Below are positions 1 through 9,895 of a DNA stretch of 9,895 nucleotides, in pieces. Made by a program: the position numbers and the translations under genes. The stretch's first letter is position 1. The number at the start of each line of letters is the position of its first letter. Origin of the DNA: Escherichia coli (GTDB lineage Bacteria > Pseudomonadota > Gammaproteobacteria > Enterobacterales > Enterobacteriaceae); the NCBI RefSeq assembly GCF_003334355.1, contig NZ_QOWP01000057.1. One strand, given 5' to 3'. The notes under the pieces were generated by a model. That model worked only from the letters and a program-made list of their open reading frames with translations, searched no databases and was not told the DNA's origin.

Positions 1-116
1 TGAATCTGAGGCAGCACCTGGCACGGCTGGGACGGAAGTCGCTGTCGTTCTCAAAATCGGTGGAGCTGCATGACAAAGTCATCGGGCATTATCTGAACAT
101 AAAACACTATCAATAA
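1..116 (+). CDS. insB: IS1 transposase InsB, C-terminal portion (5' end outside window)
   Basis: Frame starting at 3 translates to [37 protein letters not shown] with stop TAA at 114-116, which is the recalled InsB C-terminus. No start codon in window. Confidence 0.8.
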
Positions 117-131
117 GTTGGAGTCATTACC
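1..131 (+). mobile_element. IS1 insertion sequence, right-end fragment (element continues upstream of window start)
   Basis: Positions 1-131 match, from memory of the IS1 sequence, the InsB C-terminal coding region followed by the terminal inverted repeat (...CACTATCAATAAGTTGGAGTCATTACC ending at 131). Flanking DNA starts at 132. Confidence 0.85.
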
Positions 132-698
132 CAACTAATCTTATCTATATATCATGTGATATGTTCTGTAACAAGTAAAATCAACATAAAAAATTCAGCA
201 AAATTTAATATTCGCTCAACTAGCCGTCTCACATATGACATTATTAGTCAACTCCATTTGCCACAAAATGGCTATTTCATGGAACGCAGTAATTTCTTAG
301 TGGCTATTATCATGCTAATTCTTAGGTCCCTAGCGATTATTCCTGGCTGGTTCGTCAGTTTAGACCATGAGATTGTTACATTCCTTTTTATCATGGAGAT
401 ATGGGGGAAAGCAGGAAACGATTTTTTCATCTGCATCCGTTGGTAAATATGGCTTTGGTCACTACGACTTAAACCTTCCTCAATCACAGCTGTTCGCCGG
501 GCGATACGGCAAACAAACTAAGTGAGGCATCACCCTGAAAACACCAACATCAACAAGCCTCTCCAGATCGGCTTCAGGAGTGACCAGTTACAAGCCACAA
601 ACCAGGAAACATATTTCATGATGAGAATTATGCTAAGCCTGATGGCGGGTAAACACTTATTTTCACCAAGCTCACTGAGTTAGCTTACAAAGCTTCCC

Positions 699-717
699 TT
701 ATTTAGACTCTAAATAA
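699..717. repeat. Perfect 9-bp inverted repeat TTATTTAGA-C-TCTAAATAA, followed by a second IR AGATATT-N6-AATATCT at ~733-752
   Basis: Read directly from sequence. Lies in the AT-rich nanC-upstream regulatory region; candidate protein-binding palindrome. Confidence 0.4.
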
Positions 718-878
718 ATTATTTATAAAACAGATATTTAAAAGAATATCTTTAGTTTTTGAAGACCACCGCAAGTGTTCGTCTGGCTTCACATGGCATC
801 TTCCTCTTAGAAAAAGATCGACATATTTTGTGACACGAATTGCAAATCTGGTTTTGTTGTATGGATTGCGTGATTTTT

Positions 879-906
879 GATCTGGTATAACAGGTATAAA
901 GGTGCA
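879..906. promoter_or_regulatory. NanR-type operator: GGTATA-ACA-GGTATA-AA-GGTGCA repeats immediately preceded by a GATC Dam site
   Basis: GATC at 879-882; GGTATA at 884-889 and 893-898; degenerate third repeat GGTGCA at 901-906. Tandem GGTATA hexamers are the recognised NanR binding motif, and such a site is known in the fimB-nanC intergenic region. Confidence 0.6.
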
Positions 907-1157
907 CCGCGATAGACAATGAGACAGGGCATCTTGCAATCTATGGCAAACATCACTTCAGTTCTTTCTCATCGGGTGATGAAAACGCACTTCAGTCTGA
1001 AAGGAATATGAAAATGAGATCAACAAACACTCTATTTTATGACTCTGGGTAAAATGGATTGAGTAAGTGATATAGCTTACGAACATTCAAATCAATTAAA
1101 CATCAGAAGAGATTTTATACTCAGGTATTTAATCTGGCTCTCTGTTTATTTAAATAA

Positions 1158-1178
1158 TGTGAAAAGAGAATTTTCACA
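1158..1178. repeat. Perfect 8-bp inverted repeat TGTGAAAA-N5-TTTTCACA about 145 bp upstream of the nanC start
   Basis: Read directly from sequence; candidate operator in the nanC promoter region. Spacing does not fit a canonical CRP site. Confidence 0.4.
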
Positions 1179-1321
1179 GGAGACCTTATACAAAAAATAT
1201 AAAATAAGCTACCCATTGCCAAAGACACTATAAGCCTGGCAAAAAATATTACACAACATAAATGCTAATTGTTTATGCGGGCTTTGTATTGCTTTCTGTA
1301 TCCTACAAATGAGTGAAATTT

Positions 1322-2038
1322 ATGAAAAAGGCTAAAATACTTTCTGGCGTATTATTACTGTGCTTTTCGTCACCATTAATTTCTCAGGCTGCGACACTGG
1401 ACGTACGTGGTGGATATCGTAGCGGAAGCCATGCCTATGAGACTCGACTCAAAGTCAGTGAGGGATGGCAAAATGGATGGTGGGCAAGCATGGAAAGTAA
1501 TACCTGGAATACCATTCATGATAATAAAAAGGAAAATGCCGCACTCAATGATGTTCAGGTTGAAGTTAATTACGCGATTAAACTTGATGATCAATGGACG
1601 GTGCGCCCGGGAATGTTAACGCATTTTAGCAGCAACGGCACCCGCTACGGACCCTACGTAAAACTGTCCTGGGACGCGACAAAAGATCTTAATTTTGGCA
1701 TTCGCTATCGTTACGACTGGAAAGCTTACCGACAACAAGACTTATCCGGTGATATGTCTCGTGATAACGTTCATCGTTGGGATGGATATGTCACTTACCA
1801 TATTAATAGTGATTTCACCTTCGCATGGCAAACGACGCTATACAGCAAACAGAACGATTATCGCTATGCAAACCATAAGAAATGGGCGACGGAAAATGCA
1901 TTTGTTCTACAATACCATATGACGCCCGATATTACGCCATACATAGAATATGACTACCTTGACCGTCAGGGTGTTTACAACGGCAGAGATAATTTATCGG
2001 AAAACAGTTATCGCATTGGTGTGTCATTTAAACTGTAG
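1322..2038 (+). CDS. nanC: N-acetylneuraminic acid outer-membrane channel NanC (KdgM-family porin), 238 aa
   Basis: ORF-track frame 1313-2038. Chosen start is the ATG at 1322 (MKKAKILSGVLLLCFSSPLISQA..., signal peptide ending AQA-A); the track start at 1313 is an upstream GTG. Sequence recognised as E. coli NanC (YjhA). Stop TAG 2036-2038. Confidence 0.93.
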   Translation: MKKAKILSGVLLLCFSSPLISQAATLDVRGGYRSGSHAYETRLKVSEGWQNGWWASMESNTWNTIHDNKKENAALNDVQVEVNYAIKLDDQWTVRPGMLTHFSSNGTRYGPYVKLSWDATKDLNFGIRYRYDWKAYRQQDLSGDMSRDNVHRWDGYVTYHINSDFTFAWQTTLYSKQNDYRYANHKKWATENAFVLQYHMTPDITPYIEYDYLDRQGVYNGRDNLSENSYRIGVSFKL

Positions 2039-2057
2039 TAGACAGGAGACAGTCACA

Positions 2058-3164
2058 ATGAATAAAACAATAACGGCGCTTGCTATCATAATGGCTTCAT
2101 TTGCCGCAAACGCGTCTGTATTACCGGAAACTCCTGTGCCATTTAAAAGTGGTACCGGAGCAATTGATAACGACACTGTCTACATTGGTTTAGGTAGCGC
2201 AGGTACAGCATGGTACAAGCTGGATACACAGGCCAAAGATAAAAAATGGACAGCGTTAGCTGCATTCCCTGGTGGACCGAGAGATCAAGCAACCTCTGCA
2301 TTTATTGATGGTAATCTGTATGTGTTTGGCGGCATTGGCAAAAACAGCGAGGGCTTGACTCAGGTATTTAATGACGTACACAAATACAACCCCAAAACCA
2401 ATAGCTGGGTTAAATTGATGTCGCACGCGCCGATGGGCATGGCGGGCCATGTGACTTTTGTACACAACGGCAAGGCTTATGTTACTGGCGGTGTTAACCA
2501 GAATATCTTCAATGGCTATTTTGAAGATCTCAACGAAGCTGGAAAAGATTCAACCACTATAGATAAAATCAACGCCCACTATTTTGACAAAAAAGCAGAA
2601 GATTATTTCTTCAATAAGTTTCTGTTGTCTTTTGATCCCTCTACACAGCAATGGAGTTACGCTGGCGAATCTCCCTGGTACGGAACGGCTGGTGCGGCGG
2701 TTGTGAATAAAGGTGATAAAACCTGGCTTATTAATGGCGAAGCCAAACCAGGATTGCGAACGGATGCCGTATTTGAACTTGATTTCACCGGTAATAATTT
2801 AAAATGGAATAAGCTTGCTCCCGTCGCATCACCAGATGGCGTCGCTGGCGGTTTTGCAGGCATGAGCAATGACTCACTTATATTTGCCGGAGGGGCCGGA
2901 TTCAAAGGTTCACGAGAAAATTACCAGAACGGTAAGAACTATGCGCATGAAGGCCTGAAAAAATCATATAGCGCTGATATTCATCTTTGGCATAACGGGA
3001 AATGGGATAAATCGGGCGAATTATCGCAAGGTCGGGCCTACGGAGTATCATTGCCCTGGAATAATAGTTTATTAATTATTGGCGGTGAAACTGCAGGCGG
3101 CAAAGCGGTGACGGATTCAGTTTTAATTTCTGTGAAGGATAATAAAGTCACAGTACAAAACTAA
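2058..3164 (+). CDS. nanM: N-acetylneuraminate mutarotase NanM (Kelch-repeat beta-propeller, periplasmic), 368 aa
   Basis: ORF-track frame 1950-3164. Chosen start is the ATG at 2058 preceded by AGGAGA (2044-2049); the track start at 1950 overlaps the nanC 3' end. MNKTITALAIIMASFAANASV... signal peptide; recognised as NanM (YjhT). Confidence 0.93.
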   Translation: MNKTITALAIIMASFAANASVLPETPVPFKSGTGAIDNDTVYIGLGSAGTAWYKLDTQAKDKKWTALAAFPGGPRDQATSAFIDGNLYVFGGIGKNSEGLTQVFNDVHKYNPKTNSWVKLMSHAPMGMAGHVTFVHNGKAYVTGGVNQNIFNGYFEDLNEAGKDSTTIDKINAHYFDKKAEDYFFNKFLLSFDPSTQQWSYAGESPWYGTAGAAVVNKGDKTWLINGEAKPGLRTDAVFELDFTGNNLKWNKLAPVASPDGVAGGFAGMSNDSLIFAGGAGFKGSRENYQNGKNYAHEGLKKSYSADIHLWHNGKWDKSGELSQGRAYGVSLPWNNSLLIIGGETAGGKAVTDSVLISVKDNKVTVQN

Positions 3165-3170
3165 CGCTTC

Positions 3171-3192
3171 AGGGCCCCGGTAAAGGGGCCTT
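3171..3192 (+). other. GC-rich stem-loop (AGGGCCCC / GGGGCCTT, loop GGTAAA) in the nanM-nanS intergenic region
   Basis: 8-bp stem read directly from sequence, starting 7 nt after the nanM stop. No clean downstream T-tract, so it looks more like an intra-operon attenuator or RNA-stability hairpin than a strong terminator. Confidence 0.4.
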
Positions 3193-3228
3193 GCTATCAA
3201 TTTGTCATTTGTATTACGCGAAAATTAT

Positions 3229-4209
3229 ATGAACGCAATAATATCGCCCGATTATTACTATGTTCTTACCGTTGCTGGTCAGTCTAATGCCATGGCGTAT
3301 GGCGAAGGACTACCATTACCGGACAAGGAAGATGCGCCTCATCCCAGAATTAAACAATTAGCGAGATTTGCGCATACACATCCCGGAGGCCCGTCATGTC
3401 ACTTTAACGACATTATTCCACTGACTCACTGCCCACACGATGTTCAGGATATGCAGGGTTATCACCATCCTCTGGCAACGAATCATCAAACACAGTACGG
3501 CACCGTTGGCCAGGCACTACATATAGCACGGAAATTACTGCCCTTTATTCCTGATAATGCAGGGGTTCTCATCGTTCCGTGTTGCCGTGGCGGATCGGCT
3601 TTTACCGCGGGCAGCGAAGGGACATATTCAGAACGGCACGGAGCCAGCCATGATGCTTGTCGTTGGGGAACGGATACTCCGCTATACCAGGATTTAGTCA
3701 GCAGAACGCGAGCCGCACTGGCAAAAAATCCGCAGAACAAATTCCTCGGCGTATGCTGGATGCAAGGCGAATTTGACTTAATGACCAGTGACTACGCGTC
3801 ACACCCTCAACACTTTAATCATATGGTTGACGCCTTTCGTAGGGATCTAAAACAATACCATTCTCAGCTTAATAAAATTACTGACGCGCCGTGGTTTTGC
3901 GGCGATACCACCTGGTACTGGAAAGAAAATTTCCCTCATGCGTATGAAGCTATTTATGGCAATTATCAAAATAATGTTCTAGCCAATATTATTTTCGTCG
4001 ACTTCCAGCAACAAGGTGCAAGAGGACTGACGAACGCGCCTGATGAAGATCCGGACGATTTAAGCACGGGATATTACGGTTCAGCGTACCGGTCACCGGA
4101 GAACTGGACGACGGCACTGCGAAGCAGTCATTTCAGCGCGGCAGCCCGTCGAGGGATTATTTCTGACAGGTTTGTAGAAGCAATTTTGCAGTTTTGGCGC
4201 GAAAGGTGA
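3229..4209 (+). CDS. nanS: 9-O-acetyl-N-acetylneuraminate esterase NanS, 326 aa
   Basis: ORF-track frame 3202-4209. Chosen start is the ATG at 3229 (MNAIISPDYYYVLTVAGQSNAMAYGEG...); the track start at 3202 is a TTG. Recognised as NanS (YjhS). Stop TGA 4207-4209. Confidence 0.9.
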   Translation: MNAIISPDYYYVLTVAGQSNAMAYGEGLPLPDKEDAPHPRIKQLARFAHTHPGGPSCHFNDIIPLTHCPHDVQDMQGYHHPLATNHQTQYGTVGQALHIARKLLPFIPDNAGVLIVPCCRGGSAFTAGSEGTYSERHGASHDACRWGTDTPLYQDLVSRTRAALAKNPQNKFLGVCWMQGEFDLMTSDYASHPQHFNHMVDAFRRDLKQYHSQLNKITDAPWFCGDTTWYWKENFPHAYEAIYGNYQNNVLANIIFVDFQQQGARGLTNAPDEDPDDLSTGYYGSAYRSPENWTTALRSSHFSAAARRGIISDRFVEAILQFWRER

Positions 4210-4219
4210 GCGTTCATTA

Positions 4220-4488
4220 ATTTGATTTATTCGCATCCATCAGCGCTTTTAACTCCTCCGGCGTAAACGGTGGTTTGCGTCGGTGCAACATCGCATGGCA
4301 ATTAGGGCACACAGGAAGTAAAAAAACATATGAGATCAAGGTAATATATCTTCGCTTGCAGGCTTGAACCGCAGAAAATTTGCGAGCATGATCGCAATTA
4401 TTTCACTGCCAGGGATATCAATGGCTTCCAGTAAATCGCTGACGAGCCTTTTTTTGCTCTCCAGCAAATCCGTAAGCAGCGTGACCCA
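4220..4488 (-). pseudogene. HNH endonuclease remnant (C-terminal CxxCH zinc-finger region), frameshifted, no start codon
   Basis: - strand frame with codons at 4402..4220 ends ...LISYVFLLPVCPNCHAMLHRRKPPFTPEELKALMDANKSN* (stop 4217-4219). An adjacent - strand frame (4488..4339) gives the protein-like VTLLTDLLESKKRLVSDLLEAIDIPGSEIIAIMLANFLRFKPASEDILP. The two segments are in different frames and both are bounded by stops upstream. Confidence 0.4.
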
Positions 4489-4857
4489 TTATTTCGCAAA
4501 CATGTATTACGCGCTTATAACTACCAGTGCGCAATATGTAGCTTTAATATTTGTTACGGCAACTCCACCGTCTCACTGGAAGCGACACATATAAAATGGA
4601 AACAACATGGTGGCCCTTGTGAAATTCCCAATGGCCTGGCGCTTTGCGCGATACATCATAAAGCCTTTGATAAAGGAACGATTGGCCTGGATGAAAATAT
4701 GCGGGTACTGGTATTGGATGCGGTAAACGGCGGAGAGATCATTGAGAGGTCATTCTGGGATTTTGACGGAAAAATTATTGCGTTGCCACAGGTGCGTAAA
4801 AATTACCCTTTTGAGGGGGTTGTAGAGTGGCATCGGAAAGAGTTTTTTAGGGGGTGA
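4435..4857 (+). pseudogene. HNH_2-type endonuclease remnant (N-terminally truncated; in-frame TAA at 4432-4434)
   Basis: + frame 4435-4857 translates to ...QQIRKQRDPLFRKHVLRAYNYQCAICSFNICYGNSTVSLEATHIKWKQHGGPCEIPNGLALCAIHHKAFDKGTIGLDENMRVLV...EFFRG*. This matches the recalled HNH_2 signature (FR..vL.aY..CAiC ... LEAaHI ... NGLaLC..HH.aFD.G). No plausible start codon or RBS; the upstream frame is closed by stops. Confidence 0.5.
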
Positions 4858-4860
4858 GGT

Positions 4861-5169
4861 AACCATTATATATCTTTCACCTAGAATTTTAAATGTAATA
4901 GATAAAGTATTTTCTGACACCGAAAGTATTATTTATGAGTACATAGCCATAAATCAATTTTAAAATCTCAATATAAAACACGTTTACAAATATTCTAGTC
5001 AGAGTAAATATATATTCATTATAAGAGAATCCAATTATTAACCAATCGACATTACAAATTAAAAAATAATTAGCATGTTGAACTGTACATTAATTTATAT
5101 ACATAGTAAATTTACATCTATTCATGATATAATTATCGTGATATCAATTCATTAATCAGGAAAATCATA
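4861..5169. other. Strongly AT-rich intergenic block (by eye well under 30% GC)
   Basis: Dense A/T runs and TA-rich words read directly from sequence, contrasting with the nanCMS genes. Typical of horizontally acquired DNA and promoter islands. Confidence 0.7.
5125..5133 (+). promoter_or_regulatory. Candidate extended -10 promoter element TGATATAAT upstream of the 5170 ORF
   Basis: TG-n-TATAAT at 5125-5133, about 37 nt upstream of ATG 5170. No good -35 at 17 bp spacing; the AT-rich context makes chance matches likely. Confidence 0.3.
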
Positions 5170-5472
5170 ATGGAATTATTAAATACTTATGATGATAAAG
5201 AAACAGCTGAAATATTTTTTGAAAGAATAGAAGGAGAGAAAAGATTAGCAAGTGAACGAGATGCTACGGAAACAGTCTATAACCTCTTCGGGCAACCAAC
5301 CTGGAAAAATTTATATCTTCTTGATATGTTTAACCTAAAAGAATTACAAGGGATTATAGAGTGTAGAAAAAATGGACAGTCTTTCGACCAGGAACGACAC
5401 CGGGAAATAATAAAAATGCTTGAATATGCAGCAAAATCGTTTGACTTAATTATTCCTGCACATTGGCGATAA
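5170..5472 (+). CDS. Hypothetical small protein (100 aa), function unknown
   Basis: ORF-track 5170-5472. AGGAAAA 5 nt upstream of the ATG; followed by a strong hairpin terminator. Sequence (MELLNTYDDKETAEIFFERIEGEKRLASERDATETVYNLFGQPTWKNLYLLD...) not recognised as any family I know. Confidence 0.5.
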   Translation: MELLNTYDDKETAEIFFERIEGEKRLASERDATETVYNLFGQPTWKNLYLLDMFNLKELQGIIECRKNGQSFDQERHREIIKMLEYAAKSFDLIIPAHWR

Positions 5473-5474
5473 TA

Positions 5475-5507
5475 TCTGCTCCATATCTCACAGAGATATG
5501 GAGCAGA
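5475..5507. terminator. Bidirectional intrinsic terminator between convergent genes
   Basis: 15-bp perfect stem (5475-5489 pairs with 5493-5507; TCTGCTCCATATCTC / GAGATATGGAGCAGA) with 3-nt loop ACA. Flanked by A/T-rich tracts on both sides, between the 5170-5472 ORF stop and the 5519 stop of the - strand gene. Confidence 0.7.
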
Positions 5508-5518
5508 ATCATATTTAT

Positions 5519-8500
5519 TTACTCGCTAACCATCTTACTGAATAATTTCTCCAGATACAATGAGCCAGTATCCTCAATAAAAAGCACATTTCTGGCTTCC
5601 AGATTCTCTTTTGAATCAGGTACGTTTACTAAGTCAACATAACAAGTTTCAGAAACAATAAATGCACTTAATGATAAGTTATCATCCGATAATTTATGTT
5701 CAAGATTCTTGATTTCTTTATATAATCCGAACTTTGGATCATCAAGATTAAGATTGCGGATGCCTTTTGGATCAATAAGACTTAACCATTGTTTACCACT
5801 TTTATCATCGACTAACCACAATAAGAAATCCGGATAAAAATTACCCGCAGTAGCAAAGCCCAGGCCTCTATTTTTAGAATCCGCATTTCTTAGCAGATAT
5901 AAACTTTTATCACCAATAATTTTCTGCCCTTTTGTCGAATCAACAAAAGACTGAAGATCATGGACAAAAGTAATCTCACTTGATGCACCCAGTGTTGCCG
6001 GTCGCATTTTTAGCGGTATGTTGGCATTTTTTTCAATCGAAAGAAGTGGATAATAGAGATGTTTATCAAAGGTAATAGCAACCATCCCGGATGCACTCCA
6101 GGATTTTGCTTTACCGATTTCGCCGTCGATGACCAATTGTTGTAATTGTTCCAGCCGACTGGCATATGCCAACCCATCATCAGTTTCTTCGATCTCGAAA
6201 TGGTACATTTTGATCATACCAGGATCATCTTCTTTCACCTGCGTGACTTCATAAAACTGACCTTCATAAGCATTTTTCAATGTGTTGTAAAAGCGATCAG
6301 TATAATCAGTCAGCAGACGAAGCATAATATCTTCCTGCTTAGCAATATCTGCATATTGCTTAATCTCAAGCTCTGAAGCTGGAATCAAAAGGGTATACCA
6401 ACTATTTCCGATCTTTGTCTTACCGGTACAAAAGTCGATCAAACGTTGTTTATCCACACGTAAATTTGACCAGCCGCGTTGTAGTTTATAATTCTGAATG
6501 GCGAGATAAAGCCGATCAAAATCAAACGCACTAATGATTTTATAATCTAACTTCGCTTCATTACGCACGTTAACCGGAGTATTGTCCCCTTTTCTGCTGG
6601 TATCAATCGACTCAAGTTTCGGGTATAGGTCCAGCTTAATATGCGGCTGCTTAATTTTCCCCTGAAAATCAGCAGGAACTTCATACAATTCGGGAAAATA
6701 GACACGTTTAAAGCCGAGTCTTTGATTATCTTTATAACCATCTTTAAGCTTAAGTGTTTTAAGCCTGGTTGCTGGCATATTTGGCCGAGTTTCAAAATTC
6801 AGCTCAAGGATCTCGTCACTTGGCGTAATCCCTTCATCTTCCAGGTATTGTTTAAAGGTTGCCATGTAATCGGCACGTACACCGAATACATTCAGTGTCT
6901 CTAATTTTTCCAGATGCAACCCTTTCGGACGCTCACCGGGTGTACTGCGTTTCAAAGAATAATTGCGACCTTTAAGGCGAACGCCACGACCAAATAACTG
7001 AATGATCTGTGAACCTTCTCCACGGCCCATATTGAGCAATCCCATCGTTGAGACGCGCCAACTGCTCCAGCCTTCAGTAAATTTTCGCGAGCCGATCAAA
7101 ATATGTAGTTGCGAGTCTTTGTCATTTAACGTATGAAAGAGTGACTTCGCAAAATCATCTCTCTGATAATCAAATGTCGTATCCTCTTCACACATTTTGT
7201 AAAGAGACGGTGCATCACCAATATTGATAAGACCAAACGGTTCGGCCTCACCAACCTGTAATGCCAGTTCACCTTTACTGCCTATTAAATTCAGAACTCG
7301 CAGTCTCTGACCTGAGTGAGTGGTGTTAAACAAACGAGAAAGAATATCTGCGTAGATATCTTCCGGGCCGTTCATTAGTGCGGTAAAGCGATTTTCAAAA
7401 ATGTTACGCTCTTTGGTATCAAGAATTCGCGCTTTATTTTCAATGAGATCTTTAATCCACGATTTTGCCTGCGATTCATGATTTAAAAACCATGCTAAAA
7501 AACGCAGTACTGCGTGAATGTCTGAATCTTCACCACTTACGGTGTTACCGACAAAAACCCATAGCGGTTTTTCGATATTAAATTCATTTAATTTTTCTTT
7601 ATTCTTATTGAATAAATATTGTTGCTGATAAAAGCTGAGCAAACACGCGGTAAAATACTCATACCGACGCTCATCTTTTTTATCCTCTTCAGGATTAAGG
7701 TTAAGAATCAGTGATTCTTTACCATAACCATCCTCATAGAAGAATTTATAGGAGTAATCGAACAGAATCGATTTCCCATAGACTTCTCGTGTCGCCTGAA
7801 TACGCGCATCACGTTGTTCTTCGCTGGTTAATGCTATTTGCGCTAACTGTTCTTCGCTCAGTTTACCTAAGGCAGTTGTTTCAAAAAGCAGCTTTGCTTT
7901 TTTCTTCTGAATTTCTGTTTCAACTGCCTCAACATTATTGCCACCGGCCACTGCCTGGCCAAAAGTTGCTGAATATTCAAACGCAAATCCGTCACGCGTT
8001 AATTTGTCACGACGGCGCATCCAGGCACCAGCAGCACTTCCTGTGCCTTTATGCCCTTCATCAATCAGGACCAGATTGTTGCCTTCAAATGCCTCAACGG
8101 CAACAGTTTTGTCACCCATTTCATCGGCAAGTTTATTGATATCAATAACTTCAATCGTGCCTTTAAATGGCGCGGATTTACTCTTATCGAATAACTGGTA
8201 TTGGGTAAATCCTGAGTTTTCCAGTTCATCTAAATGTTGCTTCGATAGGCGTTCATCCGGCGTAAGCAGGATGATTTTATCCGGGTAATGATGGCTATTA
8301 CCGTTCTGGAAATAATGTAAATATTGCAAAATATTGACATGTAATAGCAGTGTCTTACCAGAACCAGTAGCGTTCCAGTATGCCAGTTTATTCAAATCAT
8401 CCAGAACGTATGATTTGAACTGATTAGCCCGGTCTTTTGCTGTTTTATCATTTTCAGCATTGTATGCTGCCAGCTCGTTATTTAGCCCATCGAGTAATTG

Positions 8501-8899
8501 CTGTTTACGGTTGAAGTACCAGTCCAGGTAGATCTCGGTAAACAGAAGCGACAAGTACTGAAAATATTTCATGTTCAGCACTGTGTCTTCTTTACGATTA
8601 CGGTGCTCGGTTATCTGCTGCCAGTGCTGCACGATATTGAGATCGTAACGACGCAGTTCATCGAGATCGATAAGATCGACCTCGAATAAATAGTTACTCA
8701 GCTCATGGAAGAATAAGCTTTGGCCATCTTCATGGATGCCTTCAAAGCGATCCTCGCCTAACCGATTCTTCAAACCTTGCAATGTGCCATCTTTAAAAAA
8801 ATGGAACATAAAGCGGTTTAAAACCAACTGCTTATGAAAGCTCAGCTTGCTGTTAGTCTCTTTTTTAACTGCTTTACCGGTGGTCGGTTTTTTAGCCAT
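5519..8899 (-). CDS. SF2 helicase with C-terminal PD-(D/E)xK nuclease motif; Type III restriction Res-like subunit (1126 aa)
   Basis: Intact ORF. Strong RBS GGAGGAGG 7 nt upstream of the ATG at 8899. Walker A ATGSGKT (aa 177-183; 8351-8371), motif II LIDEGH (aa 278-283; 8051-8062), motif VI QLFGRGVR (aa 634-641; 6977-7000), and C-terminal YPDFLLWLV...LIDPK (aa 1022-1045; 5765-5833) fitting PD-x(n)-(D/E)xK. Helicase-then-nuclease order matches Type III Res. Confidence 0.8.
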   Translation of the reverse strand: MAKKPTTGKAVKKETNSKLSFHKQLVLNRFMFHFFKDGTLQGLKNRLGEDRFEGIHEDGQSLFFHELSNYLFEVDLIDLDELRRYDLNIVQHWQQITEHRNRKEDTVLNMKYFQYLSLLFTEIYLDWYFNRKQQLLDGLNNELAAYNAENDKTAKDRANQFKSYVLDDLNKLAYWNATGSGKTLLLHVNILQYLHYFQNGNSHHYPDKIILLTPDERLSKQHLDELENSGFTQYQLFDKSKSAPFKGTIEVIDINKLADEMGDKTVAVEAFEGNNLVLIDEGHKGTGSAAGAWMRRRDKLTRDGFAFEYSATFGQAVAGGNNVEAVETEIQKKKAKLLFETTALGKLSEEQLAQIALTSEEQRDARIQATREVYGKSILFDYSYKFFYEDGYGKESLILNLNPEEDKKDERRYEYFTACLLSFYQQQYLFNKNKEKLNEFNIEKPLWVFVGNTVSGEDSDIHAVLRFLAWFLNHESQAKSWIKDLIENKARILDTKERNIFENRFTALMNGPEDIYADILSRLFNTTHSGQRLRVLNLIGSKGELALQVGEAEPFGLINIGDAPSLYKMCEEDTTFDYQRDDFAKSLFHTLNDKDSQLHILIGSRKFTEGWSSWRVSTMGLLNMGRGEGSQIIQLFGRGVRLKGRNYSLKRSTPGERPKGLHLEKLETLNVFGVRADYMATFKQYLEDEGITPSDEILELNFETRPNMPATRLKTLKLKDGYKDNQRLGFKRVYFPELYEVPADFQGKIKQPHIKLDLYPKLESIDTSRKGDNTPVNVRNEAKLDYKIISAFDFDRLYLAIQNYKLQRGWSNLRVDKQRLIDFCTGKTKIGNSWYTLLIPASELEIKQYADIAKQEDIMLRLLTDYTDRFYNTLKNAYEGQFYEVTQVKEDDPGMIKMYHFEIEETDDGLAYASRLEQLQQLVIDGEIGKAKSWSASGMVAITFDKHLYYPLLSIEKNANIPLKMRPATLGASSEITFVHDLQSFVDSTKGQKIIGDKSLYLLRNADSKNRGLGFATAGNFYPDFLLWLVDDKSGKQWLSLIDPKGIRNLNLDDPKFGLYKEIKNLEHKLSDDNLSLSAFIVSETCYVDLVNVPDSKENLEARNVLFIEDTGSLYLEKLFSKMVSE

Positions 8900-8901
8900 T
8901 C

Positions 8902-9873
8902 TTAAACCTCCTCCGCAAACATCAGGTTCAAGAATTCAGGTTCGATCTGGCGGATTTTCAGGCTACGAACAATCTCGCCGTCTTCTTCATCAACGGTAAA
9001 GGCGGTAGGTAAGTTATGATCGCCATTGATATAGATAACGTCGAACGTATTTTCTTTTGCATATAAATCGAATCTGTTGGCATATTTATTCAATTCTTCA
9101 TAGCCGATCTTGTCGCAATCGCGCCACAGAATAAGGGTACGCTCGCCAGTTGGTAGCGTTCCTTCAACACGCACATAGCCACGTTCGATATTGGATTCGA
9201 TGGATTTCACATGTAAGCCAATGAGATAGTTGAAAGTTTCAACTAAATCGATGTTCTTACGCTCAGTAGCACCTGCGGAATCCGTTGTAACATCCATTTC
9301 GTAGTTAAATGGTTTTTTGAAATTATCAGTATTGAGTAGTGAGCCTTTGCTTTCTGTTTCAAGCATATAGTTAAGAACATAATCCTCTCGAATTTCTTTA
9401 AGATCGTCGAAAAGATCCTTTGTTGTTTCAGTACGTTTCAGTGCTATATTGTTAAGAGTATCCTCAAAACTCTCAATTTTAATATATTTTATTAATGTCT
9501 GCTCAACTGGATTACAGCTTAGTGCTTTTCCATACTTCCAGTCAGTTGTAAAAATAGCTTTTTTTACTCTAGGCAAGGTAACAGAATAAAAATATTCACC
9601 TTGTTCGACCAAGCTAAATTTTCGAAAACCATTATCATCCCTATTCATATCTACCACTGCATGCCCTGTAGTACCAGAGCCAGCAAAATAGTCTAAGAAA
9701 TGAGCATACTTCGAATTACTAAGCGACTCTAAACATTCCTTAACCGCATAAATACTTTTTGGAAAAGAAAAATTAATCTGAGTCACGTTAAACAAACTAT
9801 TTAATAGTTCCGAACCATTGAACCGCCCCGGGTTTCCTGGAGAGTGTTTTATCTGTGAACTCAGGCTGCCAGA
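8902..9873 (-). CDS. Type III Mod-like N6/N4 DNA methyltransferase, C-terminal portion (AdoMet motif I plus C-terminal domain); reading frame interrupted upstream
   Basis: Open frame 9873..8902 contains FSFPKS...LDYFAGSGTTGHAV (motif I at 9667-9693) followed by RKFSLVEQGEYF, the pattern seen in beta-class and Type III Mod methyltransferases. The stop TAA overlaps the res RBS with only a 2-nt gap to the res ATG. In-frame stop at 9874-9876; a different frame is open 9800-9895. The catalytic DPPY-type motif is not in the window. Confidence 0.65.
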   Translation of the reverse strand, partial: SGSLSSQIKHSPGNPGRFNGSELLNSLFNVTQINFSFPKSIYAVKECLESLSNSKYAHFLDYFAGSGTTGHAVVDMNRDDNGFRKFSLVEQGEYFYSVTLPRVKKAIFTTDWKYGKALSCNPVEQTLIKYIKIESFEDTLNNIALKRTETTKDLFDDLKEIREDYVLNYMLETESKGSLLNTDNFKKPFNYEMDVTTDSAGATERKNIDLVETFNYLIGLHVKSIESNIERGYVRVEGTLPTGERTLILWRDCDKIGYEELNKYANRFDLYAKENTFDVIYINGDHNLPTAFTVDEEDGEIVRSLKIRQIEPEFLNLMFAEEV

Positions 9874-9895
9874 TCATCGTTTCCGATGGAAGCAT

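Follow-up and report, generated by a model that had tools for sequence, protein, structure and literature searches.

Beside nanS on the Escherichia coli chromosome lie what are, with high confidence, the remains of a dead divergent two-gene cassette of modification-dependent restriction nucleases, disabled by two independent deletions and left thereafter to relaxed selection. The window, meaning the whole 9,895-nucleotide stretch of DNA that was analyzed, retains the 3′ ends of both genes: gene A on the minus strand, which when intact encodes a ScoMcrA_N domain and an HNH nuclease, and gene B on the plus strand, which encodes a sulfur-binding domain and an HNH_2 nuclease. An earlier note, made from the letters alone, had described two decayed HNH-type nuclease genes in opposite orientation at this place, and intact homologues at the same locus bear this description out at 99.1% and 89.9% DNA identity. 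The features of the window are as follows.

Positions 3229-4209: nanS, a full-length open reading frame (ORF), intact in the window.
Positions 4217-4321, minus strand: gene A 3′ remnant, codons 183-216 and stop (translation, DNA homology, PGAP).
Positions 4311-4322: junction of deletion 1, 572 bp, with positions ~3114-3685 of the intact-locus reference L004 lost (blastn overlap, junction sequences compared).
Positions 4322-4420: intergenic stretch between the two divergent genes (promoter region), kept (blastn).
Positions 4421-4440, plus strand: gene B start codon and first 6-7 codons (MASSKSL), kept (alignment to L004 3795-3814).
Positions 4433-4440: junction of deletion 2, 436 bp (3n+1), L004 ~3815-4250 lost (blastn overlap).
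Positions 4435-4857, plus strand: gene B 3′ remnant, codons 150-290 and stop (NF045808, Pfam HNH_2, blastn, PGAP).
Positions 4449-4455, plus strand: run of seven T (T7), just past junction 2.
Positions 4860-5170: AT-rich spacer, GC 22-27%.
Positions 5170-5472: 100-aa ORF that follows the AT-rich spacer.
Positions 5519-9818, minus strand: Type III-like restriction-modification module, continuing in locus L007 to 11193.

Comparison with other strains, which the earlier note had proposed as a check, found both genes intact at this very position. The next gene after nanS in strain VTB96816v encodes a 216-aa HNH endonuclease and lies on the minus strand, and a 290-aa phosphorothioated-DNA-binding endonuclease gene on the plus strand comes after it; the two are divergently transcribed, lie ~136 bp apart, and each has its own start and stop. 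Intact gene B matches the NCBIfam profile NF045808 from end to end (438.7 bits), its N-terminus aligning to the ScoMcrA sulfur-binding domain (PDB 5ZMO, E=6e-8) and its C-terminal HNH region to the TagI HNH (PDB 6GHS). Residues 24-87 of intact gene A align to the ScoMcrA head domain (PDB 5ZMM) and its C-terminus to the HNH of EcoK McrA (PDB 6GHC), with Pfam HNH PF01844 located at residues 141-197. Each gene has a reader domain of its own, the HNH families differ within the pair (PF01844 in gene A versus PF13391 in gene B), and precomputed Pfam labels on homologues are PF26340 (DNA-SBD_ScoMcrA) and PF26345 (ScoMcrA_N).

The homology and the deletion boundaries can be read directly from the alignment. 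By blastn, the window falls into three pieces collinear with the intact locus, with two separate gaps of 572 and 436 bp and no inversion, the pieces overlapping by 12 nt at junction 1 and by 8 nt at junction 2. Window 4101-4322 corresponds to L004 2892-3113 (99.1% DNA identity, E=4e-112), 4311-4440 to L004 3685-3814 (95.4%) and 4433-4860 to L004 4243-4670 (89.9%). Deletion 1 takes gene A codons 1-182, including the start codon, together with ~27 bp upstream, and is flanked by the imperfect repeats CAGGAAGTAAA and CAAGCAGCAAA. Deletion 2, flanked by AAATCGCT and AAATTGCT, takes gene B codons ~8-149 and with them the whole sulfur-binding domain; its length being 3n+1, the HNH-coding part of gene B lies in another frame than the ATG at 4421. 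Gene A would thus have lost its start, reader domain and catalytic core in one event, and gene B its sulfur-binding domain in the other, which would also have uncoupled the surviving HNH-coding half from the kept promoter and ATG. Both deletions lie between short imperfect direct repeats, a setting from which we infer replication slippage or illegitimate recombination as the mechanism. In strain H22 (locus L010), a deletion-1 junction of equal length differs at two bases, CAGGCAGCAAAAAAAC against CAGGAAGTAAAAAAAC in the window (4309-4330), indicating a crossover at another point of the imperfect repeat; this may be either an independent recurrence of deletion 1 or a later conversion.

The minus-strand remnant translates as LLPVCPNCHAMLHRRKPPFTPEELKALMDANKSN followed by a stop, identical to residues 183-216 of the intact 216-aa HNH endonuclease of VTB96816v. 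It begins at L183 and keeps, of the nuclease, the terminal CPNCH zinc knuckle alone, the C-terminus that had already been recognized from the sequence; the catalytic His/Asn region and the N-terminal ScoMcrA_N (head-like) domain are gone. With 34 codons the fragment is too short for a profile match and by itself finds none in NCBIfam, so that it was identified by the homology of its DNA with that of the intact gene: it is orthologous to the intact members by sequence at the 3′ end and by position beside nanS. PGAP labels it a pseudogene, ‘HNH endonuclease, missing N-terminus’. A 29-aa ORF (MNAHLSRQNCKIAS...) occupies 4128-4217 on the minus strand, antisense to the 3′ end of nanS, and its ATG overlaps the stop codon of the HNH remnant (TAATG).

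The plus-strand remnant is an open 140-codon stretch containing CAIC...LEATHI...NGLALCAIHHKAFDKG, in which the HNH_2 nuclease core (CxxC...H...N...HH) is recognizable as CAIC...THI...NGLALCAIHH. The HNH_2-like core that the earlier note had seen is confirmed by Pfam HNH_2 (E=3.4e-8) and by NF045808, ‘phosphorothioated DNA-binding restriction endonuclease’ (E=1.3e-56, 191.8 bits), whose curated cut-off of 180 bits the remnant exceeds. The profile search for HNH similarity was therefore positive for this fragment, with the minus-strand one settled by DNA homology. The NF045808 match covers profile positions 149-284 of 284 only, and the sulfur-binding domain (PF26340, ScoMcrA SBD fold) that intact alleles carry is missing. 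PGAP again calls a pseudogene, ‘phosphorothioated DNA-binding restriction endonuclease, missing N-terminus’. No uninterrupted ORF of ~290 aa is left: the intact protein begins MASSKSLQQ, and from the kept ATG at 4421 translation now runs out of frame for 57 aa, to position 4594, while the HNH frame has no ATG, GTG or TTG before 4699. The statement that both fragments lack starts thus holds for gene A, whose start is deleted, and fails for gene B, whose ATG is kept. Likewise, of the stops and frameshifts said to interrupt them, the frameshift is real and is produced in gene B by the 436-bp deletion, whereas the stops lie in the spacer 4322-4420 between the genes, the homologous parts being free of them. 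Neither remnant can make a nuclease, and both are presumably not expressed.

The kept intergenic region contains an 18-bp inverted repeat, TTGCGAGCATGATCGCAA, at 4380-4397, which may serve the two genes as an operator or be a mere hairpin. A consensus promoter scan of this region returned nothing above shuffled expectation.

The surviving half of gene B has drifted. Intact alleles differ from it at 22-24 amino acids, and the changes cluster in the loop that follows CxxC; nine of them lie within CGFNMRHDDTTVALEAAH, a segment conserved in homologues of other genera. Comparison of the remnant with intact alleles gives dS 0.26 and dN/dS 0.28, and comparison of two intact gene B alleles with each other gives dS 0.09 and dN/dS 0.07. 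On these sequence comparisons, the drift agrees with a relaxation of selection on an allele that was already old and divergent, the amino-acid changes having presumably been gathered after the deletions. When the 140-aa remnant was used to search for homologues, most of the matches were likewise truncated ORFs, and the divergent allele did not turn up in intact form; the sole relevant find was P0002, a mosaic allele.

These data bear on whether junction 2 is instead the scar of a homeologous or illegitimate recombination that imported a divergent gene B 3′ half together with the AT-rich island. To the left of 4440 the DNA is 95-99% identical to intact alleles and to the right ~90%, and this step leaves the import of a divergent 3′ half by recombination a modest chance of being right. 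The dS of 0.26, the drop in GC from ~45% to 22-27% directly past the stop codon of the remnant, and the occurrence of the double remnant with several different downstream contents point the same way, and the mosaic P0002 indicates that such recombination does occur. Against it, no donor allele was found in the search, and the very association of the double remnant with varied downstream DNA (IS66, IS630 or the Type III-like module) argues that the remnant predates the islands. We therefore regard import as unlikely and retain simple deletion followed by drift as the preferred account of gene B.

The T7 run raises the question of conditional expression of the plus-strand remnant. The promoter region and ATG are kept, the run follows directly after the junction, and computation shows that one additional T (T8) restores a 145-aa ORF without the sulfur-binding domain, so that this protein might arise by slippage from T7 to T8 or by a −1 slip of the ribosome on C CUU UUU UUG. 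The loss of one T (T6) was also considered as a frame-restoring change and was rejected, since the computed frame stays broken. A form of SprMcrA whose sulfur-binding domain is truncated actively nicks DNA without specificity (PMC7461809), a precedent for a 145-aa nuclease serving as a toxin or non-specific nickase. Yet all four window-type genomes examined carry T7, alleles 2-3% divergent included, and the nine clustered substitutions together with the raised dN/dS indicate no selection for function. Conditional expression is accordingly very improbable, and so is a role for its product as a toxin or nickase; the reading of gene B as a relic cut off from its own start is kept.

Intact and intermediate alleles, observed directly in other E. 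coli genomes, separate the two lesions. Strain 2017-03-3CC and E. coli W have gene A deleted (deletion 1) and an intact 290-aa gene B, and strain 300709 has an intact 216-aa gene A and a truncated gene B. In K-12, gene A carries a 631-bp deletion, a ~71-bp deletion removes the gene B start, and gene B is truncated after codon ~89; these deletions each lie at their own microhomology, unlike those of the window. The K-12 gene B fragment is directly beside nanS by blastn and unannotated in NC_000913.3. The K-12 pseudogene yjhZ had been considered as the missing gene B N-terminus, which would have implied an inversion or insertion, and was discarded on that blastn placement. The K-12 nanS-yjhR interval (ythB and the unannotated gene B fragment) is thus the same locus with the same two ancestral genes and microhomology deletions; it differs in what is left, namely codons ~7-89 of gene B and the first five codons of gene A, the latter joined to the ythB frame, whereas in the window it is the other end of each gene that survives. 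The window type, the K-12 type and the single-gene losses together make at least three sets of microhomology deletions that arose independently at the locus.

Frequencies were taken from 5,426 complete E. coli genomes. Because the search joins pieces up to ~500 bp apart, junction-spanning queries were unsuitable and the census was made by deleted segments. Both genes are full length in ~326 of the 5,426 (~6%; at least 80% of a 1,676-bp two-gene query covered). The gene A 5′ segment is present in 1,237, the gene B N-terminal (sulfur-binding-domain) segment in 1,742 and the gene B C-terminal (HNH_2) half in 2,079. The window-type double remnant occurs in ~361, the arrangement being common to them through position 5200, and is also seen with IS66 or IS630 as the downstream DNA.

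K-12 YthB (MNKLPAHLSRQNCKIAS...; locus L006 5598-5696) is in the same frame as the 29-aa ORF of the window, fused by the K-12 deletion, and its N-terminus, MNKLP, stems from the first five codons of the dead gene A. With its frame fused to MNKLP, YthB looks like a chimeric relic driven by the start of gene A. In many RefSeq records nanS is annotated as a truncated pseudogene (‘missing C-terminus’) and in others with identical DNA as nanS; the pseudogene label is probably an annotation artefact tied to the calling of a YthB-like ORF.

The earlier note had also entertained a rearrangement that split one ancestral nuclease gene, by inversion or otherwise, into two opposed fragments. Intact genes A and B do jointly carry ScoMcrA head, sulfur-binding and HNH domains, and at a deep level the pair resembles a ‘split ScoMcrA’. 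The intact alleles are nonetheless two complete ORFs with their own starts and stops, distinct HNH families and a spacer between them, and the window is collinear with them apart from the two gaps. Since alleles with one deletion only exist (2017-03-3CC, W and 300709) and the K-12 deletions differ, the lesions are independent and not the product of a single splitting rearrangement, which we consider extremely improbable for the recent history of the window. Chance motif matches in non-coding DNA, for which the sole point is the shortness of the minus-strand fragment and its failure to match a profile alone, are given no weight in view of the NF045808 score and of the intact genes at the same locus, with which the DNA is 99% and 90% identical.

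Comparison with characterized enzymes places gene B close to EcoWI, a phosphorothioate-dependent restriction endonuclease of SBD-HNH architecture (Lutz et al. 2020, PMC7461809). EcoWI cuts N7/N6 away from GpsAAC/GpsTTC, in which it binds the Rp-phosphorothioate, and thereby keeps out plasmids with dnd modification in transformation; it acts alone when cloned and has a predicted size of 33.4 kDa; phosphorothioate-dependent cleavage was demonstrated for EcoWI only (PMC7461809). In E. coli W, gene B at the nanS locus is intact (WP_000168572.1), with 290 aa and 33.31 kDa. As the EcoWI paper gives neither accession nor sequence (PMC7461809), we infer the equivalence with the strain W gene from enzyme name, size and family, which make gene B very probably an EcoWI orthologue. 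The remnant in the window is homologous to the C-terminal HNH_2 half of the NF045808 family, but it lacks the whole sulfur-binding domain, is out of the start-codon frame and is no active enzyme; compared with the strain W protein, 24 of its 140 residues are changed.

ScoMcrA of Streptomyces coelicolor, organized as head-SBD-SRA-HNH (PDB 5ZMM/5ZMO; PMC6224610), shares with the intact pair its sulfur-binding domain, found in the gene B N-terminus, and its head domain, found in the gene A N-terminus, and both A and B end in HNH nucleases. The function of the head domain is stated to be unknown (PMC6224610). In E. coli, by contrast, these domains are spread over two divergent genes, the SRA domain is absent and the two HNH domains come from different Pfam families; the window holds no reader domain at all. 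EcoKMcrA resembles intact gene A in its HNH, aligned over McrA residues 199-269, of which the remnant keeps the CxxCH knuckle. It differs in that the N-terminus of intact gene A is ScoMcrA_N and not the McrA reader, and in that the remnant is without the catalytic His and Asn.

Beyond E. coli, the intact divergent pair was also found in Citrobacter farmeri, Klebsiella aerogenes and another Klebsiella, in unrelated genomic contexts (L011, L013-L015, L019). Its neighbors are type VI secretion genes in Citrobacter farmeri and, in Klebsiella, either a Type I HsdR and an Mrr_N-HNH gene or JetD-like genes. More distant ScoMcrA_N-HNH genes are solitary in the samples from Pantoea, Citrobacter freundii, Shewanella and an E. 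coli paralogue; the last adjoins TraI_2 relaxase and ArdC-family genes and likely sits in a conjugative element. Intact pairs in varied contexts, together with solitary distant genes, indicate that the pair is mobile as a cassette among close relatives and that pairing is not obligatory. That the divergent pair is a conserved mobile two-gene cassette whose members act together as a ‘split ScoMcrA’ is a more doubtful proposal, to which we give a small chance. A literature search found no characterization of the 216-aa ScoMcrA_N-HNH protein.

The window as a whole is E. coli chromosome. The right end of an IS1 occupies positions 1-131 and is followed by nanC, nanM and nanS; strain NCCP12480 matches positions 1-9818 at 100%. 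Homology to K-12 starts at position 132, ~264 bp upstream of fimB, and the gene order gntP-IS1-nanC in the matching strain indicates that IS1 has taken the place of the entire type 1 fimbrial operon (fimB-fimH). On the other side of the remnants, the 100-aa ORF gave no match in NCBIfam or PADLOC. The module beyond it encodes a Type III-like restriction enzyme/helicase of 1126 aa (PADLOC REase_III, 2316 bits), a Type III-like methyltransferase of 1034 aa, and an SNF2 protein of 963 aa with DISARM DrmD as its best match. The methyltransferase gene breaks off at 9818/9819, where it meets one end of an IS1203-like element, a multicopy member of the IS3 family (window 9819-9895), and in the window the methyltransferase is probably inactivated. 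This junction occurs in none of the 5,426 complete genomes, so that the source strain of the window lies outside that collection.

The suggestion that defense genes are repeatedly gained and lost at this site agrees with the variation of the DNA beyond the remnants among strains, which may be McrBC, a Dcm-type methyltransferase, IS66 or the Type III-like restriction-modification module. The locus forms the distal edge of the leuX-anchored hypervariable island (‘hotspot 37’), called the most occupied E. coli defense island in a recent review (PMC12707154). The remnants are genuine, non-functional relics of defense-gene turnover. Much of this is already known: both are flagged as pseudogenes in RefSeq/PGAP, EcoWI has been characterized biochemically and the leuX hotspot is a described defense island. 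The value of the finding is therefore modest, as a clean, datable example of defense-gene decay, and it draws attention to ScoMcrA_N-HNH, the partner gene by which EcoWI-type genes are accompanied in several genera of enterobacteria. Should the pair prove to act as a ‘split ScoMcrA’, the copies in the window would still be dead, the 216-aa partner would be a second modification-dependent nuclease or an EcoWI accessory, and the recurrent, independent gene losses in E. coli would be a sign that, at the leuX hotspot, these nucleases come into conflict with DNA-modification systems that have been acquired.
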